DNA of 64,000 bases, from the NCBI GenBank assembly GCA_903824665.1, contig CAIJXT010000019.1:101472-165471 (forward strand), given 5' to 3'. The notes below the pieces were generated by a model. The model ran no database searches, was not told the origin of the DNA, and was given only the letters and a program-made list of their open reading frames with translations. The stretch is from an uncultured Bacteroidota bacterium (GTDB lineage Bacteria > Bacteroidota > Bacteroidia > Chitinophagales > Chitinophagaceae). The position numbers and the translations under genes were made by a program. Below, piece after piece: positions 1 to 58,711 of the stretch (the stretch's first letter is position 1; each line of letters opens with the position of its first letter).

Positions 1-3000
1 GAAGGACCGGCGCCGGAAGGGTATGCCTGCAAAGTGACGGGAGTGCCAGCGGTGACCGATAAGCCAGGAGTGGAAGCTATGACAACATGGGGCTCTGAAT
101 ACGGGGCGACACGGATGGTGACACCATCGCCGAAAGCAGTATCGGCGGTGCGGCACAGATAGTTGCTCACCATGGTACACCGAACAATGTCGCCATCGGC
201 AGGCTCGTAAGCATACCCGGATCCGGTAGTGGCAAATAAGCCATTCACACTCCAGTAAAAAGCAGGAGTGTACCCGCCCGCGGCAGGAATGGCAGTAAAG
301 TTGACTACTGTATGCTTACATACGGTATCACCGGGATCGAGTGCGAGGGTGACAGCAGGTGTGGCAACGGGCAACACGGTAAGCACCTTTGTGCCGGTAA
401 CATAGGGCAATGTAACGCATGAAGTATCGCTGGCCATGCGCACAGTGACAACATCACCATTGGCCGGGATGAAACTGTATGAAGCTGCACTGTCTACGAC
501 AACTCCGTTAACCTTCCACAAATACCCGGGAGCCAGGCCGCCGTAAACTGGCAGAGGCAGCAAGGTAACAGTAGTGCCGGGGCAGACGGTATCGTTAGGA
601 CTGGTGGCAATGCCCACGGAAGGTGTGACCAGCGGAACTACGGTAACGACAGCAGCACCACTCATGACACGGGTGCAACCGCTGGTAGCGTTAGTGGCCA
701 GTACAGTGTAAGTACCCCCAGGGGTGAGCGGACCAAAGCTAATAGGATAACCTGTTCCTGGGACATAACCTGAAACAGAGGCACCGTAGTATAGTACATA
801 ACTCACGCCGGGCTGTGAACTATCGACACCGATAGATACACCTGAACCGCCCGCACAATAATTACCGCCGCCAGTGACATTGAACACCAATGGCAATGGT
901 TCGACTGTAACTGTTTTGGTGGCATAGCAACCTGTGGAAGAGAGCACATAGCTGATCACCGCCGTACCCAATGATATAGGGGTAACAACACCAGTGACAG
1001 CACTAATGGACGCAATGAGGTTGTTGCTGCTGCTCCAGACACCGCCTGGCAAGGCATTGGTCATAGTAACGGTAGAACCTGTACAAATGTGCGGGTTGCC
1101 GATGATAGCCGGTGGTGTGGTATTTACCGTAACGACGCGTGTAACATAACAATTTGTAGGCAAGGCGTAACTAATGAATGCCGTACCCGCACTGATACCT
1201 GTGAGTATGCCGGTTAATGAGCCAATAGCTGCGGTACCAACGGCACCACTCATCCAGATACCGCCGGGAGTGGCATCGGTCTGTAATATCACGGATCCTT
1301 CACAGACACTATCAGGGCCAGTAATGGGTGCAGGAAGCGGGTGAACATCAATATGCAACACATTGAAACAACCTGTGCCCAGCATGTATGATATTACCGT
1401 GCTGCCGGCAGCTATTCCGGTAACAAGGCCAGTGGCCGCATTGACTGTGGCGATAGAAGGACTGGCAGATGACCAAGTACCACCAGGCACGGCATTGCCC
1501 AATAACGATGTCTGCGACTCACAGACATTGGGCGAACCAGAAATGACTGAAGGCAGCGGCAGGACTGTAACGATAAGATCGCGCATACAACCGGTCATGA
1601 CAGTATAGCTAACAGAGATAGTACCCGGTGTGATAGCAGTAACCACACCCGTTATGGGATTGATAGTGCCAACACCCGCAGCAGCCGGATCGCTGCTCCA
1701 CATGCCGCCGGGCAATGTATTGGTAAGATTAACGGCAAAACCAGCGCAGACAGTTGGGCCGCCAACTATAGGTGGCGGTATAGCCTCTATAGTCAACGCA
1801 ATAGTAGCAATACACCCTGTAGGCGCAGTGTAGGTAATGGTTACATTGCCGCCGGAAATGCCCATATAATCGCCCGTTGCGGCATCTATTGTCGCAACGG
1901 CAGGGTTACCACTCATCCAAGTGCCTCCAGGTGTAACATCTGAAAGATGGATAATTGCACCTACGCAAGCAACGGTAACACCGGTGATGGGTGCAGGAAG
2001 CGGATTGACTGTAACAGTGATGCTGCGCGTGCAGCCGGTGGTAAGTGAGTAATAGATTGTAGCTGTACCCAACGCTACACCATGAATGATACCGGTGGAT
2101 CCGATAGGTGCTACAAACGGATCGGAGCTGCTCCAGATACCGCCCGGGGTGGCATTGGTAAGCAAGGACGAAATACCCAAACACAACCCGGGATTACCTG
2201 CAATGGTATCGGGAAGCGGGTTGACAGTGATAGCTTTAGTGGCAAAACAACCAGTGGGCAGGGAATATGTGATCACGGCTGTGCCGCCTGCCATGCCGGT
2301 AACGGCACCAGAGGACGCGTTGACAGTAGCTGCAGTAATATTTCCGCTAGTCCATGTACCACCCGGCACACTTTGATTTAATGTAATGGTGGTGCCCTGA
2401 CAAAATACGGAGATACCTGTAATGGGTGCAGGCAGCATGTTGACACTAACTGTCTTTGTGGTGTAACAACCCGAACTGACCGTGTATGAAATAACAGCAG
2501 TGCCCACTGACATACCGAGCACCAAGCCCGAAACAGGATGGATAATAGCCACCGATGCATTGCTGCTGCTCCAGGTGCCTGAAGGTGTAGCGTTTGTGAG
2601 TGCGGTAGCTGCGCCATAACATAATGATGGATTGCCGGCTATGGTATCGGGCAAGGCATTGACAGTAACGACCACACTTGACAAGCAACCATTTGCCAGT
2701 GCATAAGTAATGCCTGATGTGCCTACTGATAGTGGAGAAACAACACCTGCCGATGAAACTGTTGCTACAGCCGGAGCACTACTGCTCCATGCGCCGCCAG
2801 CGGGCGACACAGACAATGGAGATGCATAGGTATTGCACAATGACTGGTTGCCGGTAATAGCTCCGGGCGCTGTGTTTACTGTAATATCGCGTGTGGTGAT
2901 ACAACCAGTACCCAGAGAATAGGTGATGGTAGCAGTACCGGCACTGACACCGGTTACGAGTCCGCCTGAGGCTGTAACAGATGCTACTAAAGGCTGGCTG

Positions 3001-6000
3001 CTACTCCATGCACCACTACCGCTGCTGGTGGTAAGTGTAGCCGAGCTGCCTGCGCAAATACTGCTAACACCTGATATAGTGGCCGGCAATGCATAGACCG
3101 TAACAATGACGGTGGTTACGCACAATCCCGGCATACTGTAAGAGATGGCAGATGTGCCTGCGGAAATACCCGTCACGATACCGGTTGTGGATACAGTAGC
3201 CACAGCGGGCGTACTGCTGCTCCATGTACCGCCAACGACGCTCTGTGTGAGTGTTGTAGTTGTGTTCTGGCAAAGAGAAGCACTACCGCCGATAGGATCT
3301 GGTGCGAGGTTGACTGTGACTGTCTTTGTTGCAAAGCAACCAGTGGTCAGGGTATAGCTGATGGTGGTCGTTCCGGCAGTGAGGCCAGTGGTAGCACCAA
3401 AAGTGGCCAGAATAGAAGAGACGGCCGGATTGCTGCTGCTCCATGTACCGGGCCCCGGACTGCTGGTAAACGCCACCCCGGTGCCAGTGCAATAATTTGA
3501 CGGGCCGACAATGGGAGAAGGTGGCGCATTAACCGTTACGACAACACTGATAGTACATGAACCCGGCATGGTGTAAGTAATACCTGCAGTCCCTGCTACA
3601 ATACCCGTGACAACACCTGAAGCAGAAACCGTAGCTACTGCAGGCGTACCACTACTCCAGGCACCACCTGCAACAGTCTGCGTCAATGATGTTGTAGTGT
3701 TCTCGCATAACGAAAGCGTGCCGGTAATTGGTGCCGGAGACTGGTTGACCGTCACTGGCTTTGTGGCTACGCAGCCGGTGGTCAGTGTGTAAATGATATT
3801 GGCAGTGCCTGCTGCAACACCTGTAGCTGCACCTGTTAGCGGAACAATGGAAGAAATGCCCGGGTTACTGCTGCTCCATGAGCCTGTGGAGGGACTGCTG
3901 GTAAATGTAGCACCGGCCCCTGTGCAGTATGCGGAAGGGCCTGAGATAGCTGATGGAAGGGGATTCACGGTTACAACAACAGCAGCAAAACAGCTACCCG
4001 GCATGGTGTAAGTAATGCCGGCTGTACCGGCAACTATACCTGTGACAACACCAGTAGCGGATACTGTTGCTACAGCAGGCACACCACTACTCCATACACC
4101 ACCTATGACGCTTTGGGTAAGGGTGGTAGTAGCATTGAGACATACTGATGGAATGCCGGAAATAGGAGCGGGAATGGCATTGACAGTAAGCGGGCGCGTA
4201 GCGGTACAACCCACGCCTGATGAATACGAGATGGTCGCAGTACCGGGAGCTATGCCACCAACCAAGCCTGTAACTGCATTGACCGTGGCGATGAGCGGAT
4301 GCGAACTACTCCATGCACCGCCGGGAGGAGTACTGGCAAAGGCAGATGTGGTGCCGGCACAAATGTTATTAGTACCGGTAACCGCACCTGGTGGTGCATT
4401 GACAGTAACGACAGCTGTAACAAAACAACCGGCGGCTGTTGTATAGGAAATGCGGGCTGTTCCGGCAATAAGTCCCGATACTACCCCACCAGTTGACACA
4501 CTGGCAGTGGCCGGAGCGCTGCTACTCCAGGCACCTGTTCCGGTAGCATTAGTAAGTGTAGTGGTAAACCCGACGCAAACAGTGCGCAGTCCGGCAATTG
4601 TATCTGGTAGTGGATTGACGGTAACGGTTCGGACTGTACTGGATGTGCATCCAATAGGATTTGACACAGTAAGCGTAACAACGTGTGTGCCGGGTAGGGT
4701 GAACGTATGGGCCACGGAGTATCCTGTGCCAGAGGCACTGCTGCCAAATGACCAAGCCCAAACGGAAGGAGCTGAATAGGTGGCGTATGAGGAGTCGGTG
4801 AAGGTAACAGAGCTACCCTGACAAACAGGGTTGGGGTTGATACGGAATTTAGCATTGAGCACGTCGACCTTTATCGTATCGGGGCTGATGCTGGAATTGG
4901 TACAACCGGTACTGTCGGTAAGAATCAACTTCGGTATATACTGGCCCGGTATGAGGTAGGTGTGGGAAATCGTATCGGCTGTAGACAGACCGGAAATGAA
5001 TCCGTCGCCGAAGTCCCAGATGAGACTGGCTACACTGCCCAGGGACGTGCTGAAATGCACGGGAAGCGGCGTGCAACCTGACATAGGCGTGTATGAAAAC
5101 GCTCCTGTATACCCGAAAATATTAACATTGCCATAGGCAGTATCTGTGCACCCTATGGAATTGTAAGCGACCAGTCTGATGGTATAATAGCCAGCAGCAG
5201 TATAGGGGCTGCTGGGGTTTGTTGCTACGGAAGAACTACTGTTTCCGAAGGACCAATTGTAGGATGCAGCACCAATACTTGCGTTTGTAAAAATGACATT
5301 GAGTGGGGGACATACTGCAAAAGTATCGCTCATTGTAAACGCAGCTACGGGTGACGGCGCCACAAAAATGTAATTGAGTAGTGTGGCAGTGTCTGTGCAA
5401 CCATGGCTCTCGATAGCGACCAGCCGAACGGTATATACGCCACCTGTGGCATACACATGATCGGGTGCAGTGAGTGTAGAAGTGTTACCATCGCCAAACA
5501 TCCAGAGATACGAAGTTGCAGCGGAAGAAACATTATTGAAATGAACAGCACTACCTACACAGACGTTGTTGATACTGGCATAAAATGATGCAGTGGGTCT
5601 GTAGACAGCGATTGGCACAACCGGTGAAGCATCGGTACAACCGATGCTGTCTGTGACAGTAAGGACCGCGTTGTATGTACCTGCAAGCGTATAGGTGTGT
5701 GCCGTTCCAGGTGTTGTCGCAGACAGTGTGACGCCATCGCCAAAAGTCCAATCATAAAATTTTAACCGACACTCGGGTATGCCGGTGCTGAGGTCGTTGA
5801 AATTGACAGGTAGTGGCCCACAGCCACTTGCAGGCACTGCGCTAAAGGCTGCAGTCGGGTTACCGACAAGAAGGTAGTCGTTTCGGGTGAGTGTGTCGAA
5901 ACAGCCCCGATCGTTTTTAATAATCAGCGTGATGTCGTGATAGCCGGGTCCGAAAGAAGCACTGATCTCATCCAATGTTGTATCTGCAAACAAAGCCCCG

Positions 6001-18774: not shown

Positions 18775-19137
18775 TCAATATTGTCCGGTGCCCAGCATCA
18801 CGAGTGTGCAGGCTTCCTGAACCTTAATCCCTTGCTTTGACGCCATCTGCTCCAATTCTTCGTTCTCTGTACCGGGATTAAAAATGATGCGACGTGGCTT
18901 GAGACCCAGAATGTAATCGTAATATGCTTCCTGATTGTCGGGATTAAGATATAGCGTAACAGTATCAATCTCATCACTGGGAACGGGCTTATTTTCAATC
19001 TTAATACCATTGACATTGCCTGCCTGTTTACCAACGGCAACTACGTCGTGACCCTTTGCCTGCAGACGCAACATAGCCATGTTGCTATACCGACCAGGAT
19101 TCTCTGACGCGCCTAAAACCAGTGTTTTATTCTTCAT
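18775..19137 (-). CDS. CoA-binding protein (YccU-like)
   Basis: TLVLGASENPGRYS, IFNPGTEN, ACTLVML. Confidence 0.9.
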   Translation of the reverse strand: MKNKTLVLGASENPGRYSNMAMLRLQAKGHDVVAVGKQAGNVNGIKIENKPVPSDEIDTVTLYLNPDNQEAYYDYILGLKPRRIIFNPGTENEELEQMASKQGIKVQEACTLVMLGTGQY

Positions 19138-52470: not shown

Positions 52471-52505
52471 AAAAATGCCGCGCTATGATGAAGCGCGGCA
52501 TTTTT
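52471..52505. terminator. Bidirectional intrinsic terminator
   Basis: aaaaatgccgcgct-atgatga-agcgcggcattttt between convergent genes. Confidence 0.85.
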
Positions 52506-52641
52506 GTTTTTGGAGATGTATAAAGTAACGGTCGCCAAGAAAATTGGCCTCATCTAATACATAATCAGAAATATCGTAGCAAACATCCGAAAGACAGATG
52601 GAACGGATGTGAGAAATGGCAATTGTCAACCGGAGTACAAA

Positions 52642-53718
52642 TCAGTATTCCTGCCCTTTGTAGAAAACACGGAACATATTCTGTCCCATCTGGTACTGAA
52701 TCACATCATAGTTGAGCTGCCAGTTGGTGAGCTCAGCATTGGTTACATCGTACAACTCGCCTTCAGAGAATAAACGCAGCGTATTGCCGTAGTTGACGTA
52801 GGCCAGTGAATTGTACTGAATGATCATGTTGGCAGGGTAATAATTATCAATGGTGGTTACTTCTCCTTTGTAAAACACTTTGAGCATATTGCTCTGATCT
52901 TTGAAAGCAACGATGTTGTCTGTAACCTGATAATTACCGCTCATGAATCCGACAGAGCGGGCACTGTCGGCATAGAAAATCTTGAAGTAACCATCGGCAG
53001 TAACATAGGCAACCACATTGTCACCAGCTTTGTAAGACTTTGGTGCGAAGTCGTCGAGTATGAAAGTCTTGCCATTGTGAAATACCTTGAATTTGCGGTC
53101 TGCGTCGACATAAGCTACGGTGTTGCGCCCTACCTCGAAACCACTAACGGGATAGTCTTCCTGCGACAACAGCTCGCCATGGAAGAATATCCTGAACTGG
53201 TTGGCGAAATTATTGTACGCAATTATGTTGTCGGTGACCTTGATACTGGACAATGTAGAATCGGCAAAATAGTTCTCGATGTTGAAAATCTGCCCCCGGT
53301 AATATGCCTTGTAAGCACCTTTGTAGCTATCGAGATACAAAATAAGGCTATCGGCAACGAAGTACTGATCACAGACACCTGTGAGGTTCTTTACTACTCC
53401 GTTCTCGAATACATTCAGCGACTTCTGGTTAAGGAATGCCACCAGATTGTCGGTAGCGAAATATGCATTGGTGAAGCCAATGTTGACTGGGGTGACACGG
53501 TTGTTGTAGTATATTTTGAATGAACGGGAATTGTCGAGATACGGGATAGCGGTGCGACCAATCTTCATACTGGTAGGTGGCAGGAAATCTATCTTACGGA
53601 TCATTCCTTTGTCCCAAACCATTACCTGATTCTGATTGTCGATAAACGAGCCTAATTGTGCTTGCACAGGGGAAAGTCCGGTAACAATGAATAGTAAGCT
53701 GAATAGCAAAAGCCGCAT
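52642..53718 (-). CDS. Secreted hypothetical beta-repeat protein
   Basis: Signal peptide and about nine repeats of roughly 38 aa (D/N-N-x-V-A-Y..F-K-I/V-F-Y-x-G). Confidence 0.8.
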   Translation of the reverse strand: MRLLLFSLLFIVTGLSPVQAQLGSFIDNQNQVMVWDKGMIRKIDFLPPTSMKIGRTAIPYLDNSRSFKIYYNNRVTPVNIGFTNAYFATDNLVAFLNQKSLNVFENGVVKNLTGVCDQYFVADSLILYLDSYKGAYKAYYRGQIFNIENYFADSTLSSIKVTDNIIAYNNFANQFRIFFHGELLSQEDYPVSGFEVGRNTVAYVDADRKFKVFHNGKTFILDDFAPKSYKAGDNVVAYVTADGYFKIFYADSARSVGFMSGNYQVTDNIVAFKDQSNMLKVFYKGEVTTIDNYYPANMIIQYNSLAYVNYGNTLRLFSEGELYDVTNAELTNWQLNYDVIQYQMGQNMFRVFYKGQEY

Positions 53719-53823
53719 ACCCTAAAACAATTTTGCTGTAATTTAAGTATTTAAAACGAAAACTGCGCCGCTACACAAATACTCAAAATGCAATAACGCG
53801 GGCGTGTAAGACAATATTGCTGC

Positions 53824-53882
53824 AAAAAAAAAGCCAGCCTGAGAACAGGCCAGCCCCTATAAACCCTATCACTATGAAAACT
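53824..53882 (-). ncRNA. Putative small RNA, copy 1 (about 55-60 nt)
   Basis: Upstream TTTG (53917-53914), 19 nt, TAACTTTG (53894-53887); ends in hairpin GCUGGCCUG-UUCU-CAGGCUGGC plus U9. Confidence 0.6.
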
Positions 53883-54006
53883 GTCGCAAAGTTACTGACA
53901 ATCGCAGTATTTGCAAATATTATTTCAATATTTTTAGGACACGTCTTAAATAAAAAGCCAGCCTGAGAACAGGCCAGCCCCTATAAACCCTATCACCATG
54001 AAAACT
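53828..54006. repeat. Two 55-nt direct repeats (53828-53882 and 53952-54006), 54/55 identical
   Basis: aaaaagccagcctgagaacaggccagcccctataaaccctatcac(t/c)atgaaaact twice, period 124 nt. Confidence 0.95.
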
Positions 54007-54045
54007 TCTTTATATAAACAAGAATGCTTTATTATTTTATCGGGC
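53952..54045 (-). ncRNA. Putative small RNA, copy 2 (about 94 nt)
   Basis: Upstream TTTG (54081-54078), 20 nt, TATATTTG (54057-54050); same 3' core, hairpin and U5. Confidence 0.55.
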
Positions 54046-54141
54046 TATGCAAATATACTGTTACAATTGAATTTTCACAAAATTTTTGGAAATATTTTAA
54101 CGTAAATAACAAATAATTGCAAACGATTGGTTATCGAAGGC

Positions 54142-54699
54142 CTATTTTTTCTTTTTTGGAGAGAACATAGCCAGCATTCTGCGTCCTTCCATCTTTGGCA
54201 TGGACTCCAATGCACCAAACTCTGCCATACGCTCAGCAAACTTCAGCAGCAACAATTCACCTCTTTCCTGAAACATAATCGCACGACCCTTGAACTGCAC
54301 ATAGCACTTCACCTTATTACCATCCTGCAGAAACTTCTCGGCGTGTTTTGCCTTGAAATCAAAATCATGGTCATCGGTATTGGGTGTGAAGCGTATTTCC
54401 TTCAGTTCGGACTGCTTGGCTTTTGCTTTCTGCTCCTTGTCCTTTTTCTTCTTCTCGTACAGGAATTTTTTGTAATCGATCACCCTGCATACCGGAGGCA
54501 CTGCATTGGGTGATATTTCTACCAGATCTACTTCCTGGTCAGCAGCCATCTTGAGTGCCTGTGCCAGCGGGTAAATACCGGGTTCAATGTCCTCTCCTAT
54601 TACGCGCACTTCGGGCGCTGTAATTTCATTGTTTAGGCGGTGTTCGTTCTGCGGAACCCTGGGCCTGAAGAAAGGTTTTGCTTTTGGTCTTTTCTGCAT
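54142..54699 (-). CDS. infC: Translation initiation factor IF-3
   Basis: HRLNNEITAPEVRVIG, DLVEISP, PPVCRVIDY, KEIRF, FKGRA. Confidence 0.96.
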   Translation of the reverse strand: MQKRPKAKPFFRPRVPQNEHRLNNEITAPEVRVIGEDIEPGIYPLAQALKMAADQEVDLVEISPNAVPPVCRVIDYKKFLYEKKKKDKEQKAKAKQSELKEIRFTPNTDDHDFDFKAKHAEKFLQDGNKVKCYVQFKGRAIMFQERGELLLLKFAERMAEFGALESMPKMEGRRMLAMFSPKKKK

Positions 54700-54788
54700 T
54701 AACTGTTTTTATGGTTATCAGACAAAATTAGAATATTTGTTTATCAAACAGACATATACTGCGTACAATTTTTTGGAATATTTTGAGC

Positions 54789-56741
54789 TTAATCTGCTTT
54801 TCTTTTTCCCTTCATCTGCTCTGTAACAATGTTGCGTATCTCTGCGCTGAAATCGTCGACAGGCAGGGCTCCTTTATCACCTTCACCATGTTTGCGGACA
54901 GAAACAGTGCCGTCGGCTGCCTCTTTCTCTCCAACTATCAGCATGTATGGAGTTTTCATCAGCTCTGTGTCCCTGATCTTTCTGCCTATTTTTTCACTAC
55001 GTTCGTCGATCTCAGCACGTACATCCGCAGCCTTGAGACGGGCCATTACGTTGTTAGCGTATTCGCTATACTTGTCGCTGATGGGGAGTACCATTACCTG
55101 CAGCGGTGCCAGCCACAGGGGCAAGTTGCCACCACAATGCTCGAGCAACACCGCAATGAAACGCTCCATGCTGCCAAAGGGCGCGCGGTGGATCATAACA
55201 GGGCGTTTGCGGCTATTGTCTACATCCACATACTCTAGTTCGAAGCGCTCAGGAAGATTGTAATCTACCTGAATTGTACCGAGCTGCCATTTGCGTCCCA
55301 GTGCGTCGCGCACCATGAAGTCGAGTTTGGGACCATAAAATGCGGCCTCGCCATATTCGATCACGGTTTTCAGTCCCTTATCATTTGCAGCATCAATGAT
55401 TGCCTGCTCTGCAATAGCCCAATTTTCCTCGCTGCCTATGTATTTGCTGCGATCTTCCTGATCGCGGAGGGATATCTGAGCCGTATATTCGGTAAAACCG
55501 AGTGACTCGAACACATACAACACGAGGTCGATAACTTTTTTGAACTCACCAGAAACTTGCTCTGGCATACAAAACAGATGGGCATCATCCTGAGTAAACC
55601 CGCGCACACGGGTGAGCCCGTGCAACTCGCCGCGCTGCTCGTAGCGATACACCGTACCGAACTCGGCAAGGCGCAACGGAAGGTCTTTGTAGGACCGTGG
55701 TGATGATTTATAAATTTCGCAATGGTGCGGACAATTCATGGGTTTTAGCATAAACTCCTCACCGTCCTGTGGGGTGGTTATGGGCCGGAAGCTATCCTTG
55801 CCATACTTCTCCCAGTGACCACTGGTGACATACAACTGCTTGCTGCCAATGTGGGGCGTAATCACGGGCAAGTAACCGGACTCCATCTGAGCTTTCTGCA
55901 GGAACTGCTGTAAGCGTTCGCGCAGCATAGCACCCTTGGGGAGCCACAGGGGCAAACCACTTCCAACTTTTTCGGAGAATGTAAACAACTCCAATTCTTT
56001 ACCCAGCTTGCGGTGATCTCTCTTACGCGCTTCTTCGAGCAGAGCGAGGTATTCGTCGAGCTCCTTTTGCGCAGGGAAAGTGATACCGTAAATGCGGGTA
56101 AGCATTTTGTTCTTCTCATTGCCGCGCCAGTATGCGCCTGCAATATTGGTAAGCTTTACGGCCTTTATAACACCAGTTGCGGGTATGTGGGGGCCACGGC
56201 AGAGGTCGGTAAAATTGCCCTGAGTATAAAAAGTGATAGAACCATCTGCAAGACCCTCAAGGAGCTCGAGTTTGTACTGATCACCTTTTTCGGTGAAGTA
56301 GGCTATTGCCTTATCTTTTGGCACATCTTCGCGTACATAAGCACTGTTGGTACGCGCGAGTTCCTTCATTTTATCTTCAATCTTCTTCAGGTCTTCGTCG
56401 CCTATGGTACGCCCATCGAGGTCGATATCATAATAAAAACCACTTTCGATGGCAGGTCCGATACCGAATTTCACGCCAGGATAGAGAACCTCCAGGGCCT
56501 CGGCCATCAGGTGGGCAGAAGAATGCCAGAAAGTAGATTTGGCATTTTTATCGTCCCAGGTAAGCAACCGCAAAGAAACATTGCTGTTTATGGGTCGTGC
56601 GGAATCCCACACTTCGCCGTTTACCTCGGCAGCAAGCACCTTGCGTGCCAGGCCTTCGCTAATAGATTTTGCCACATCTGCGGCACTTGTTCCTGCGGCA
56701 TACTCCCGTATGGAGCCATCAGGTAATGTAATCTGGATCAT
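54789..56741 (-). CDS. thrS: Threonine--tRNA ligase
   Basis: TGS domain, [44 protein letters not shown]. Confidence 0.97.
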
Positions 56742-57516: not shown

Positions 57517-57568
57517 TGATCGTGTGATTACAACGCCAAAAGGGGATTCCCAAAAACCAACTACCACT

Positions 57569-58711
57569 ATGAAAACCATACAAATCGTGACCCTACTATC
57601 GTTTTGGGTAATAGGTGCCCGGGCTGACAGTAAATATCACCCCATCACGCTCTCTCTGACCACTGAAAAGCAAAGCTATTATGAGGGCGAAAAAGTGACC
57701 TTTCTTGTCAGGATAACCAATACCGACAAAGAAAGGGCCTATCCGGTATTGGTGCCTGCGAACAAGCATACAGGACGGAAGCTCTACTGCCTGAACGTAT
57801 ATGACAAAGCCAACAACACCCTGCTGCTGCGGTATGCCGAAGACTCAAATATGCCTATGCACGTGCAAGACAGCGGCACCATAGGCGTCAGGTACCTGAA
57901 ACCCGGGGAGCAGGTGGTGATACCTATATATTGGAATGACGACACCAATAAATACCGCACAGAAGTGAGCTCTCACCACAGCTTTGGGTTGCCGCTGTTT
58001 GCCGGAATGTACAAGGTGAATGTATGCTACAATCCGAATGGCACAGTTGAAGGTGATAGCATATATGCCTACTACAATGACTCTGAAACAGAAATTCCTG
58101 CTGATAAACTGGCAATGCCGGGTAATGGTGACCAAAGCAACTTCTGCACACTGCGAATACGAAAATCCCCCAAAAAGGATATTACTATAGAAGGCGTAAC
58201 GTACTATACACAGCAAGACAGTGAGCGGCAATTCTGGTGGTATTACACAGACAGTATTGGTAATGGCGGTACAAATACCCGGTTGGTGCATCTGACCAAC
58301 TTACCGATTGACAGTTTCACATTGCGCAGCAACGAATACTATTACAGCCACTTCACAGACAAATACGGTACATACATAAAACGATTTGATGATGGTGATG
58401 TTCAGGAATACCGGAGGTATACTGACTACTGCCCGGAGGAGCTTTTGACGGAACGGTATAACGACCAAAAACAAAAAATATACTATGCTACAAAACTGCC
58501 CGACGGCCGGCATTACAACGTTCGTTACCACCAGCCGGGTGGCAAAAAGGACCAGGAAATGTACTACTCGCCAAATGGCACTAAGTGTGAAACGATCAAG
58601 TATATATACAATAAGGCCGGCGAATTTGTGAAAACCAAAAAATCATTGACTACTCCGTGTATCTATAACCTGGAGACCGGAAAAAGCTACCATTTGACAA
58701 CGGAATTGTAG
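57569..58711 (+). CDS. Secreted hypothetical protein (N-terminal Ig-like segment, Tyr-rich C-terminus)
   Basis: MKTIQIVTLLSFWVIGARA signal; LSLTTEKQSYYEGEKVTFLVRITN. Confidence 0.7.
   Translation: MKTIQIVTLLSFWVIGARADSKYHPITLSLTTEKQSYYEGEKVTFLVRITNTDKERAYPVLVPANKHTGRKLYCLNVYDKANNTLLLRYAEDSNMPMHVQDSGTIGVRYLKPGEQVVIPIYWNDDTNKYRTEVSSHHSFGLPLFAGMYKVNVCYNPNGTVEGDSIYAYYNDSETEIPADKLAMPGNGDQSNFCTLRIRKSPKKDITIEGVTYYTQQDSERQFWWYYTDSIGNGGTNTRLVHLTNLPIDSFTLRSNEYYYSHFTDKYGTYIKRFDDGDVQEYRRYTDYCPEELLTERYNDQKQKIYYATKLPDGRHYNVRYHQPGGKKDQEMYYSPNGTKCETIKYIYNKAGEFVKTKKSLTTPCIYNLETGKSYHLTTEL

Follow-up and report, generated by a model that had tools for sequence, protein, structure and literature searches.

Tandem small RNA genes with a predicted anti-start-codon 5′ region, encoded downstream of infC in Chitinophagaceae

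Between infC, the gene for translation initiation factor IF-3, and a gene for a secreted 10-bladed beta-propeller protein, the window (that is, the whole stretch of 64,000 nucleotides analysed here, from an uncultured member of the Chitinophagaceae) carries two direct repeats, 53824-53882 and 53948-54006, which are 59 nt long each and 97% identical (Table 1). The window contains precisely two occurrences of a 40-nt core of the repeat, where 0 would be expected, and the whole 4.73-Mb genome holds no full copies beyond these two. In most bacteria infC is followed by rpmI and rplT. Here the position 3′ of infC is occupied by the repeat pair instead of rpmI-rplT; as rplT lies on a separate contig (C15:137119-137469, noted with infC at 54142-54699), the usual infC-rpmI-rplT operon is split in this genome.

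Table 1 Features of the locus and of the best predicted target in the window
Feature	Position	Strand	Remarks
Secreted 10-bladed beta-propeller protein, downstream neighbour	52642..53718	-	PF21734; syntenic partner
sRNA copy 1 (‘A-type’)	53824..53882	-	~58 nt predicted; nt 1 = 53882
Copy 1 free 5′ region	53881-53858 (nt 2-25)	-	GUUUUCAUAGUGAUAGGGUUUAUA
Copy 1 terminator stem-loop	53858-53829, core 53854-53833	-	U run 53832-53824
Copy 1 promoter	53887..53917	-	-33 TTTG 53917-53914, 19-nt spacer, -7 TAACTTTG 53894-53887
sRNA copy 2 body (‘G-type’)	53948..54006	-	nt 1 = 54006
Copy 2 free region	54005-53982	-	GUUUUCAUGGUGAUAGGGUUUAUA
Copy 2 terminator core	53978-53957	-	Then UUUUUAUUU; first terminator downstream of infC
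Copy 2 promoter and leader	54007..54081	-	-33 TTTG 54081-54078, 20-nt spacer, -7 TATATTTG 54057-54050
infC (IF-3), upstream neighbour	54142..54699	-	Pfam IF3_N + IF3_C; transcript would enter copy 2 terminator
thrS	54789-56741	-	First in minus-strand order thrS, infC, copy 2, copy 1, propeller
Start region of 381-aa exported protein, predicted target	57548..57577	+	12 contiguous nt + further pairs to seed

Read on the minus strand, both copies have the sequence AGUUUUCAU(A/G)GUGAUAGGGUUUAUAGGGG, followed by GCUGGCCUG-UUCU-CAGGCUGGC and a U run. RNA folding of this strand predicts that the 5′ region (24 nt in both copies, GUUUUCAU(A/G)GUGAUAGGGUUUAUA) is unpaired and that a hairpin of 9 core pairs, or 13 with its extension, follows; hairpin and U run together scored as terminator-like. 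The fold is stronger on the minus strand (-17.9 kcal/mol) than on the plus strand (-9.7 kcal/mol), where two G-U pairs become A/C mismatches. In copy 1, 4 nt separate the -7 box from A53882, which is the repeat boundary, and A53882 or G53881 is the predicted start. In copy 2, the body is preceded by a leader of ~40 nt, variable over ~35 nt and then ending in a conserved AUAAAGA (54013-54007) just 5′ of the body, and the predicted primary transcript is ~95-99 nt long; a hairpin in this leader folds in the sequence itself and was not consistent by eye across an alignment of 18 species. No terminator was found in the interval between infC and copy 2, and because the hairpin of copy 2 is the first terminator after infC, this RNA could also come from the infC 3′ UTR. 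The layout agrees with the first-pass annotation of this DNA, which had described near-identical tandem units, a complete Bacteroidota promoter on the minus strand for each (with 19- or 20-nt spacing and the start of copy 1 at the repeat boundary), and a hairpin that pairs fully on the minus strand only and is followed by a U run. Taken as a set, these features go well beyond what chance would produce.

BLAST located the element in 23 of 24 congeners, each of which has 1-8 matches of 89-100% identity (partial, weaker matches being left out of this count), and in none of 16 further families within the order. When public genomes were scanned for the exact pattern, more than 119 loci came up, and those with a name belong to Flavipsychrobacter, Taibaiella, Nemorincola or Chitinophagaceae, bar two evidently mis-binned contigs. 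These two (L108 and L122) carry thrS, infC, the sRNAs and the propeller gene, are filed under metagenome-assembled genomes of Bordetella parapertussis and Azovibrio restrictus, and are almost certainly mis-binned Chitinophagaceae. A covariance model of the family (R1), searched at a threshold of at least 50 bits, found it in 27 genomes from 26 of 150 Chitinophagaceae genera, with 1-11 copies each, and no copy was found in the IMG/VR viral contigs. By these searches the family is confined to the Chitinophagaceae, unlike the FopS sRNAs of the Bacteroidales. One complete genome from another genus of the family (G086) holds 11 copies, including four diverged ones (a CCUAUUAC variant) within 5 kb (G086:C1:2495155-2500143) and a fifth, differently diverged, ~15 kb from the four (G086:C1 2514764).

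The gene order thrS-infC-G-type-A-type-propeller is kept in dozens of genomes, and synteny of the tandem pair extends over Flavipsychrobacter, Taibaiella and Nemorincola. Within the syntenic set, amino-acid identity falls to 78% for IF-3 and 54% for the propeller protein, whereas the sRNA bodies stay at ~100% nucleotide identity. Across the 18 aligned species the 55-nt bodies do not vary at all, free variation being found in the flanks and in the spacer (117-450 nt), and the -33 TTTG and -7 TAnnTTTG boxes are in register for both copies. Of 89 A-type copies in other genomes, 58 carry a TAnnTTT[GAC] box whose end precedes nt 1 by 3-5 nt (mostly 4); among the 214 instances surveyed, TTTG, where present, lies 19-20 nt upstream of the -7 box in 81 cases. 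The hairpin is 99.7% paired, with three pairs changed on both sides, and none of 500 shuffles reached the observed percentage paired, both-side changes or covariation score. In the most distant genera it is replaced by an unrelated self-complementary sequence, and GUUUUCAU(A/G)GUGAUAGGGUUUAUA is unchanged. An invariant 5′ region, a replaceable hairpin and a placed promoter together point to three things under selection: the unpaired 5′ region, the presence of a terminator whatever its sequence, and a promoter position that makes the RNA begin at the 5′ region. This is the signature expected of a trans-acting sRNA gene. On the basis of this comparison, the units are a real and strongly conserved sRNA gene family of the Chitinophagaceae, with a core tandem pair fixed 3′ of infC. 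The first-pass annotation had read the units as independently promoted, terminator-ended sRNA genes of the minus strand belonging to a paralogous family and had made this depend, among other things, on conservation of seed and promoter in relatives; the comparative evidence bears out that reading, as the 5′ region is unchanged in 26 genera and the boxes are in register.

Two readings in which the units have no trans function fit this pattern poorly. If the pair were cis-acting (that is, a duplicated infC terminator or an attenuating leader of the propeller gene), its constant position, flanked by infC and the propeller gene in the same orientation, and the place of the copy 2 hairpin as first terminator after infC would be accounted for; the conserved promoter of each individual unit, selection on the unpaired 5′ region alongside free replacement of the hairpin, and the existence of solo copies in unrelated contexts would not, and the 5′ region is C-poor and cannot form an antiterminator pairing with the G-rich stem. 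We therefore regard a cis-acting role as unlikely. Spread by mobile elements of a short MITE- or REP-like repeat that is selfish or mobile and has no regulatory role would be in line with the 1 to 11 copies per genome and with solo copies that often lie in variable or defence-like regions. The copies nonetheless lack both terminal inverted repeats and target-site duplications, the syntenic location of the core pair is constant in dozens of genomes, promoter and terminator keep their register, and viral contigs in IMG/VR lack the element, so that this origin seems highly improbable.

The two copies differ in the nucleotide after CAU, which is A in copy 1 and G in copy 2, and this difference is itself conserved across the genus. 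G-type copies linked to infC have their promoter 38-49 nt upstream of the body, whereas G-type copies elsewhere have it directly at the seed. In the leader, each position of AAAGA is conserved in 65-70 of 72 copies, with one free nucleotide adjoining it before the body; the RNA may be processed at AUAAAGA, or the pairing region may extend into it. In a minority of the paralogues, GAUAGGGUUUAUAGGGG and the hairpin are retained and a -7 box takes the place of UUUUCAU (L051-L053, L061, L062, L064, L111, L154 and L175), so that the shortened RNA would start at about nt 13; such 5′-shortened paralogues suggest that the RNA has a second functional segment. Solo copies have unrelated surroundings: some follow an HU gene, others an ATPase gene, others are found near restriction-modification genes, and some adjoin HsdM-like and Dnd-like genes. 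Those found 3′ of an HU-family gene in two genomes (L048 and L050) and 3′ of a 395-aa ATPase-like gene in four (L042, L046, L047 and L049) could be paralogues linked to 3′ UTRs. The genome studied here also has, at C11:97190-97250, a degenerate sense copy (GUGUUUCAUAGUGAUAGUGCUCAUAGGUG) directly 3′ of the terminator of a TonB-dependent receptor and without a hairpin of its own, which looks like a decayed paralogue.

The A/G position and the conserved leader block also bear on whether the units might encode peptides. Copy 2 could be a tiny mRNA in which AUAAAGA, at -14 to -8, drives translation of a hydrophobic peptide (MVIGFIGAGLFSGWLF...), with copy 1, which has AUA for AUG, as its non-coding paralogue: the conserved A-rich block lies at the position of a Bacteroidota translation enhancer, and the AUG of the G-type coincides in position with the AUA of the A-type. 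Against this, the three codon positions do not differ in their invariance, the frame crosses the terminator and would leave the terminated RNA without a stop codon, the peptide in other genera changes after six residues or ends at 7-13 aa, and many G-type promoters sit directly at the seed and thus allow no leader; we consider a coding function very unlikely. The opposite strand offers a further candidate, namely a type I toxin-antitoxin system in which the minus-strand RNAs are antitoxins and plus-strand open reading frames (MKTVAKLLTIAVFANIISIFLGHVLNKKPA, MKTSLYKQE...) are toxins. These frames have their start right on the complement of the seed, one of the two encodes a hydrophobic product, and tandem duplication is common in type I systems. 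We rejected this candidate, which we find hardly credible, because the opposite-strand frames of 143 distinct copies have a median length of 12-15 aa, many being shorter than 15 aa, with nothing conserved past Met-Lys-Thr, and because they run through variable promoter and spacer DNA.

The free 5′ region is the exact complement of CCCCUAUAAACCCUAUCAC(U/C)AUGAAAACU, that is, of a start codon with AAA at -11 to -13 and with Lys and Thr codons after it, and genes of this genome are A-rich at -11 to -13. We crudely called 3555 genes and folded nt 1-27 of the sRNA against positions -30 to +20 of 3549 of them. Eight start regions reached -22 kcal/mol or below, compared with 1.9 ± 1.7 for 60 shuffled sRNAs (no shuffle reached 8), and four start-anchored perfect runs of at least 12 nt were observed where 1.0 was expected. 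This excess of strong start-region duplexes is modest, and much of it follows from how common AUGAAA is, as the first-pass annotation had warned when it called target matches weak evidence. A test for 7-mer enrichment upstream of genes gave 146 occurrences (113 expected), with a strand asymmetry that G-poor leaders explain. Exact and wobble-pattern target searches in the same genome gave counts near those of permuted controls, and near-perfect complements of the core across 28 sRNA-bearing genomes did not exceed a reversed-pattern control in frequency (~17 against 12).

Top candidates from the folding were two secreted proteins with T9SS tails, a DUF4190 membrane protein, a DMT_6 transporter and several phage-like genes. 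Leading predicted start regions of this genome include those of C19:211339-212286, C20:6318-7847 and C4:21866-22264. Within the window, the best candidate is the start region at 57569 (duplex -22.5 kcal/mol, rank 11 of 3549); the complements first reported at this start, which CACTATGAAAAC spans, and at the minus-strand start at 19137, spanned by CACCATGAA, do exist. No orthologues of the 381-aa gene at 57569 were detectable, the complementarity in DMT_6 was absent from its orthologues even within the genus, and relatives of the Mu-gp36-like gene kept only fragments of the motif. The neighbouring propeller gene is not a predicted target, its start region ranking 3241 of 3549 for pairing. The genome encodes one true SusC and 14 TonB-dependent receptors, and in silico their start regions rank at random, from 471 to 3536 of 3549. 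Exported proteins, on which the first-pass annotation had called Met-Lys start codons common, were not significantly enriched among the predicted targets beyond this trivial effect once Met-Lys starts were controlled for. The first-pass interpretation is thus borne out in part, for the sRNA genes, the paralogous family and the anti-start seed. Clustering of predicted targets was not significant in the formal gene set. A six-gene phage-like cluster of this genome (C15:230638-236195, minus strand) includes Terminase-like and Mu Gp36-like genes; post hoc, three of its genes have duplexes of -22 to -26 kcal/mol and a fourth one of -18.1 kcal/mol, two of the three repeat AUUAAACCCUAUCAUU just before the start codon, and in a second species AAAACCUAUCACUAUG is still present at a Terminase_5-like mobile-element gene despite a differing N-terminus. 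Such post hoc observations are a hint that mobile-element genes may be among the targets. A search with conserved 16S and 23S motifs found no rRNA gene in the assembly. Two RRM_1 proteins are encoded in the genome.

Scanning positions 52500-55500 against Rfam (E up to 10) returned no family at threshold; matches to STnc340, DUF3800-I and VqmR were discarded as driven by the terminator alone. BTncRNA_FopS (RF04319) gave weak full-length matches of 21.5 and 19.3 bits against a gathering cut-off of 56, and when the whole genome was scanned with this model the top two matches were the two copies. By the Rfam criterion the pair is not a member of FopS. FopS sRNAs have been described in B. thetaiotaomicron as 14 paralogues of ~65-70 nt with canonical promoters, whose seed R1′ pairs beside the start codon of susC mRNAs and blocks translation in vitro; the 5′ portion of FopS sRNAs is bound by the RRM protein RbpB, which acts against them (PMC11697453). 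GibS, from the same species, has the R1 seed as well and represses mRNAs that lack a Shine-Dalgarno sequence by pairing over their start codons (PMC7366714). That RNAs with the same seed core repress at start codons (PMC11697453, PMC7366714) supports the original proposal that the free 5′ part of the units is an anti-start-codon seed.

FopS-type loci fetched with the pattern TGTTTTTCATNGTATTAGATTTAAGG show exact conservation in many Bacteroidales families. The 26-nt FopS 5′ sequence UGUUUUUCAUNGUAUUAGAUUUAAGG is exactly conserved beyond the Bacteroidaceae (loci L277-L356), in Prevotella/Segatella, Muribaculaceae, Paludibacter, Dysgonomonas, Parabacteroides and Proteiniphilum. Among 128 FopS copies, the free position, which is the same site as the A/G position here, is A in 64 and G in 64, and the -7 box lies at a fixed distance before the RNA in 120. 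The Chitinophagaceae model R1 picks the FopS copy in nearly all of 17 loci with scores of 10-14 bits, each match being individually marginal; the two families are reciprocal best matches of each other's covariance models, the RF04319 matches being sub-threshold and the R1 scores marginal. In 401 genomes of the class, a pattern scan for the shared skeleton recovered only two recurrent types, the Chitinophagaceae and the FopS version, and nothing intermediate; two further matches, each single and unlike the other, appear to be due to chance, and the reversed control gave 0 hits.

Both groups have a 5′-terminal unstructured seed core, GUUUU(U)CAU(A/G)GU, with A/G dimorphism after CAU, and the FopS R1/R1′ element UUUUCAUGGU is identical to the copies here in the model alignment. 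Both also have a canonical TTTG/TAnnTTTG promoter (sigma-ABfr type) ending 4-5 nt before the RNA, only a Rho-independent terminator after the seed, several copies per genome, a length of 58-70 nt (copy 1, at a predicted 58 nt, is slightly shorter than the ~65-70 nt of FopS), and both intergenic and 3′-UTR-linked copies. They differ in the sequence after the seed (GAUAGGGUUUAUAGGGG here, AUUAGAUUUAAGGUUAA in FopS), in the extended seed (FopS AUUAGAUUUAAGG is missing here, with GAUAGGGUUUAUAGG in its place), in the fixed infC-linked tandem pair of the Chitinophagaceae, and in that susC-like starts of polysaccharide utilization loci (PULs), the targets of FopS, are in silico not predicted targets here. 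GibS resembles the pair in its long single-stranded 5′ seed (R1, shared with FopS), but is a longer RNA that contains internal hairpins and, as R2, a second seed, and its gene is single-copy with a non-canonical promoter. Whole 5′ regions of FopS and the pair are more alike than shuffles (p ~0.01), whereas similarity in the part after the seed is not significant (p ~0.19). The shared architecture, seed core and dimorphic site make common descent with FopS plausible, homology beyond the seed not being statistically supported, and the Chitinophagaceae sRNAs are of one kind with FopS and GibS and, by analogy, most likely act through the same masking of start regions. The sibling sRNAs of Proteobacteria (OmrA/OmrB, Qrr1-4) are likewise tandem or multicopy, with an identical 5′ seed and a divergent remainder, and pair at translation start regions; they are Hfq-dependent RNAs of another phylum that target Shine-Dalgarno regions, and their sequences are unrelated. 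No description of the Chitinophagaceae family was found in the literature searched, and the family is previously undescribed. Its novelty, which the first-pass annotation had tied to the outcome of an Rfam search, holds in that no family is matched at threshold and is weakened, not removed, by the sub-threshold match to RF04319.

Taking these observations together, we think it probable that the two units are regulatory sRNA genes of one family that act in trans by pairing across start codons. The genome comparisons establish that the units are genes, with a promoter, a terminator and a 5′ region under selective constraint; base-pairing repression of translation is the best-supported mechanism by analogy, given that FopS experimentally blocks translation initiation at start codons. 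In this mechanism, each gene would be transcribed from its own housekeeping-type Bacteroidota promoter and end at its intrinsic terminator, with copy 1 giving an RNA of ~58 nt that would open directly with the conserved single-stranded region and copy 2 one of ~95-99 nt with a variable leader. The working part would be the unstructured GUUUUCAU(A/G)GUGAUAGGGUUUAUA, the reverse complement of a start region without Shine-Dalgarno sequence (A-rich at -11 to -13, then AUG AAA AC), through which the RNAs would pair in trans across the start codons of several mRNAs and block binding of the 30S subunit, possibly with mRNA decay as a secondary effect. The nucleotide after CAU would select U (A-type), or C or U (G-type), at position -1 of the target, and with such selectivity the paralogues would cover different but overlapping target sets. 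One of the two encoded RRM-type RNA-binding proteins may modulate this pairing.

Some observations sit less easily with start-codon pairing. Invariance of 24 nt over 26 genera exceeds that of a usual seed and could be explained by a conserved protein or RNA partner, the duplex excess is small, no functional class is enriched, and the complementarity in the DMT_6 and Mu-gp36-like genes is not, or only partly, kept. These RNAs might instead mainly bind or titrate a protein (for example, an RRM-type protein similar to RbpB or a component of the initiation machinery), with the 24 nt as its recognition site and mRNA pairing secondary. Such a role would account for the invariance of all 24 nt, for the absence of a conserved mRNA target among those tested and for paralogues that keep GAUAGGGUUUAUAGGGG without UUUUCAU, and it would be in keeping with the two RRM_1 proteins and with the binding of RbpB to the 5′ portion of FopS (PMC11697453). 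On the other hand, the CAU seed and A/G dimorphism are common to FopS, in which mRNA pairing has been demonstrated, protein binding is compatible with pairing and may coexist with it, and sequence alone cannot give a partner. We assign protein binding as the main function a minor though appreciable probability, and favour start-codon pairing.

A broader scenario can be envisioned in which the FopS and Chitinophagaceae sRNAs are two branches of an ancient Bacteroidota ‘anti-start-codon’ superfamily, whose 5′ end (GUUUUCAU, A or G) mimics the complement of the phylum’s initiation region without Shine-Dalgarno sequence. The A/G difference would then represent a system of two alleles, kept to match the nucleotide that precedes AUG, and the infC-coupled core pair would set a global initiation threshold on AUG-AAA mRNAs, possibly including those of mobile-element genes; through its coupling to infC, the output of the pair would rise with IF-3 transcription. 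We offer this scenario as a speculation that is doubtful in its full extent.

In summary, an invariant stretch of 24 nt and a fixed position next to infC are unusual and need explaining. Nearly all that is known of post-transcriptional control in Bacteroidota comes from gut Bacteroides, and the locus adds a testable family from an environmental lineage (Flavipsychrobacter, Taibaiella, Nemorincola and ~25 further genera). As the genome has a single SusC and neither SusC nor the TonB-dependent receptors are predicted targets, the family could reveal what such sRNAs regulate outside PULs. The seed and A/G dimorphism shared with FopS and GibS suggest that masking of start codons may be a phylum-wide answer to translation without Shine-Dalgarno sequences.
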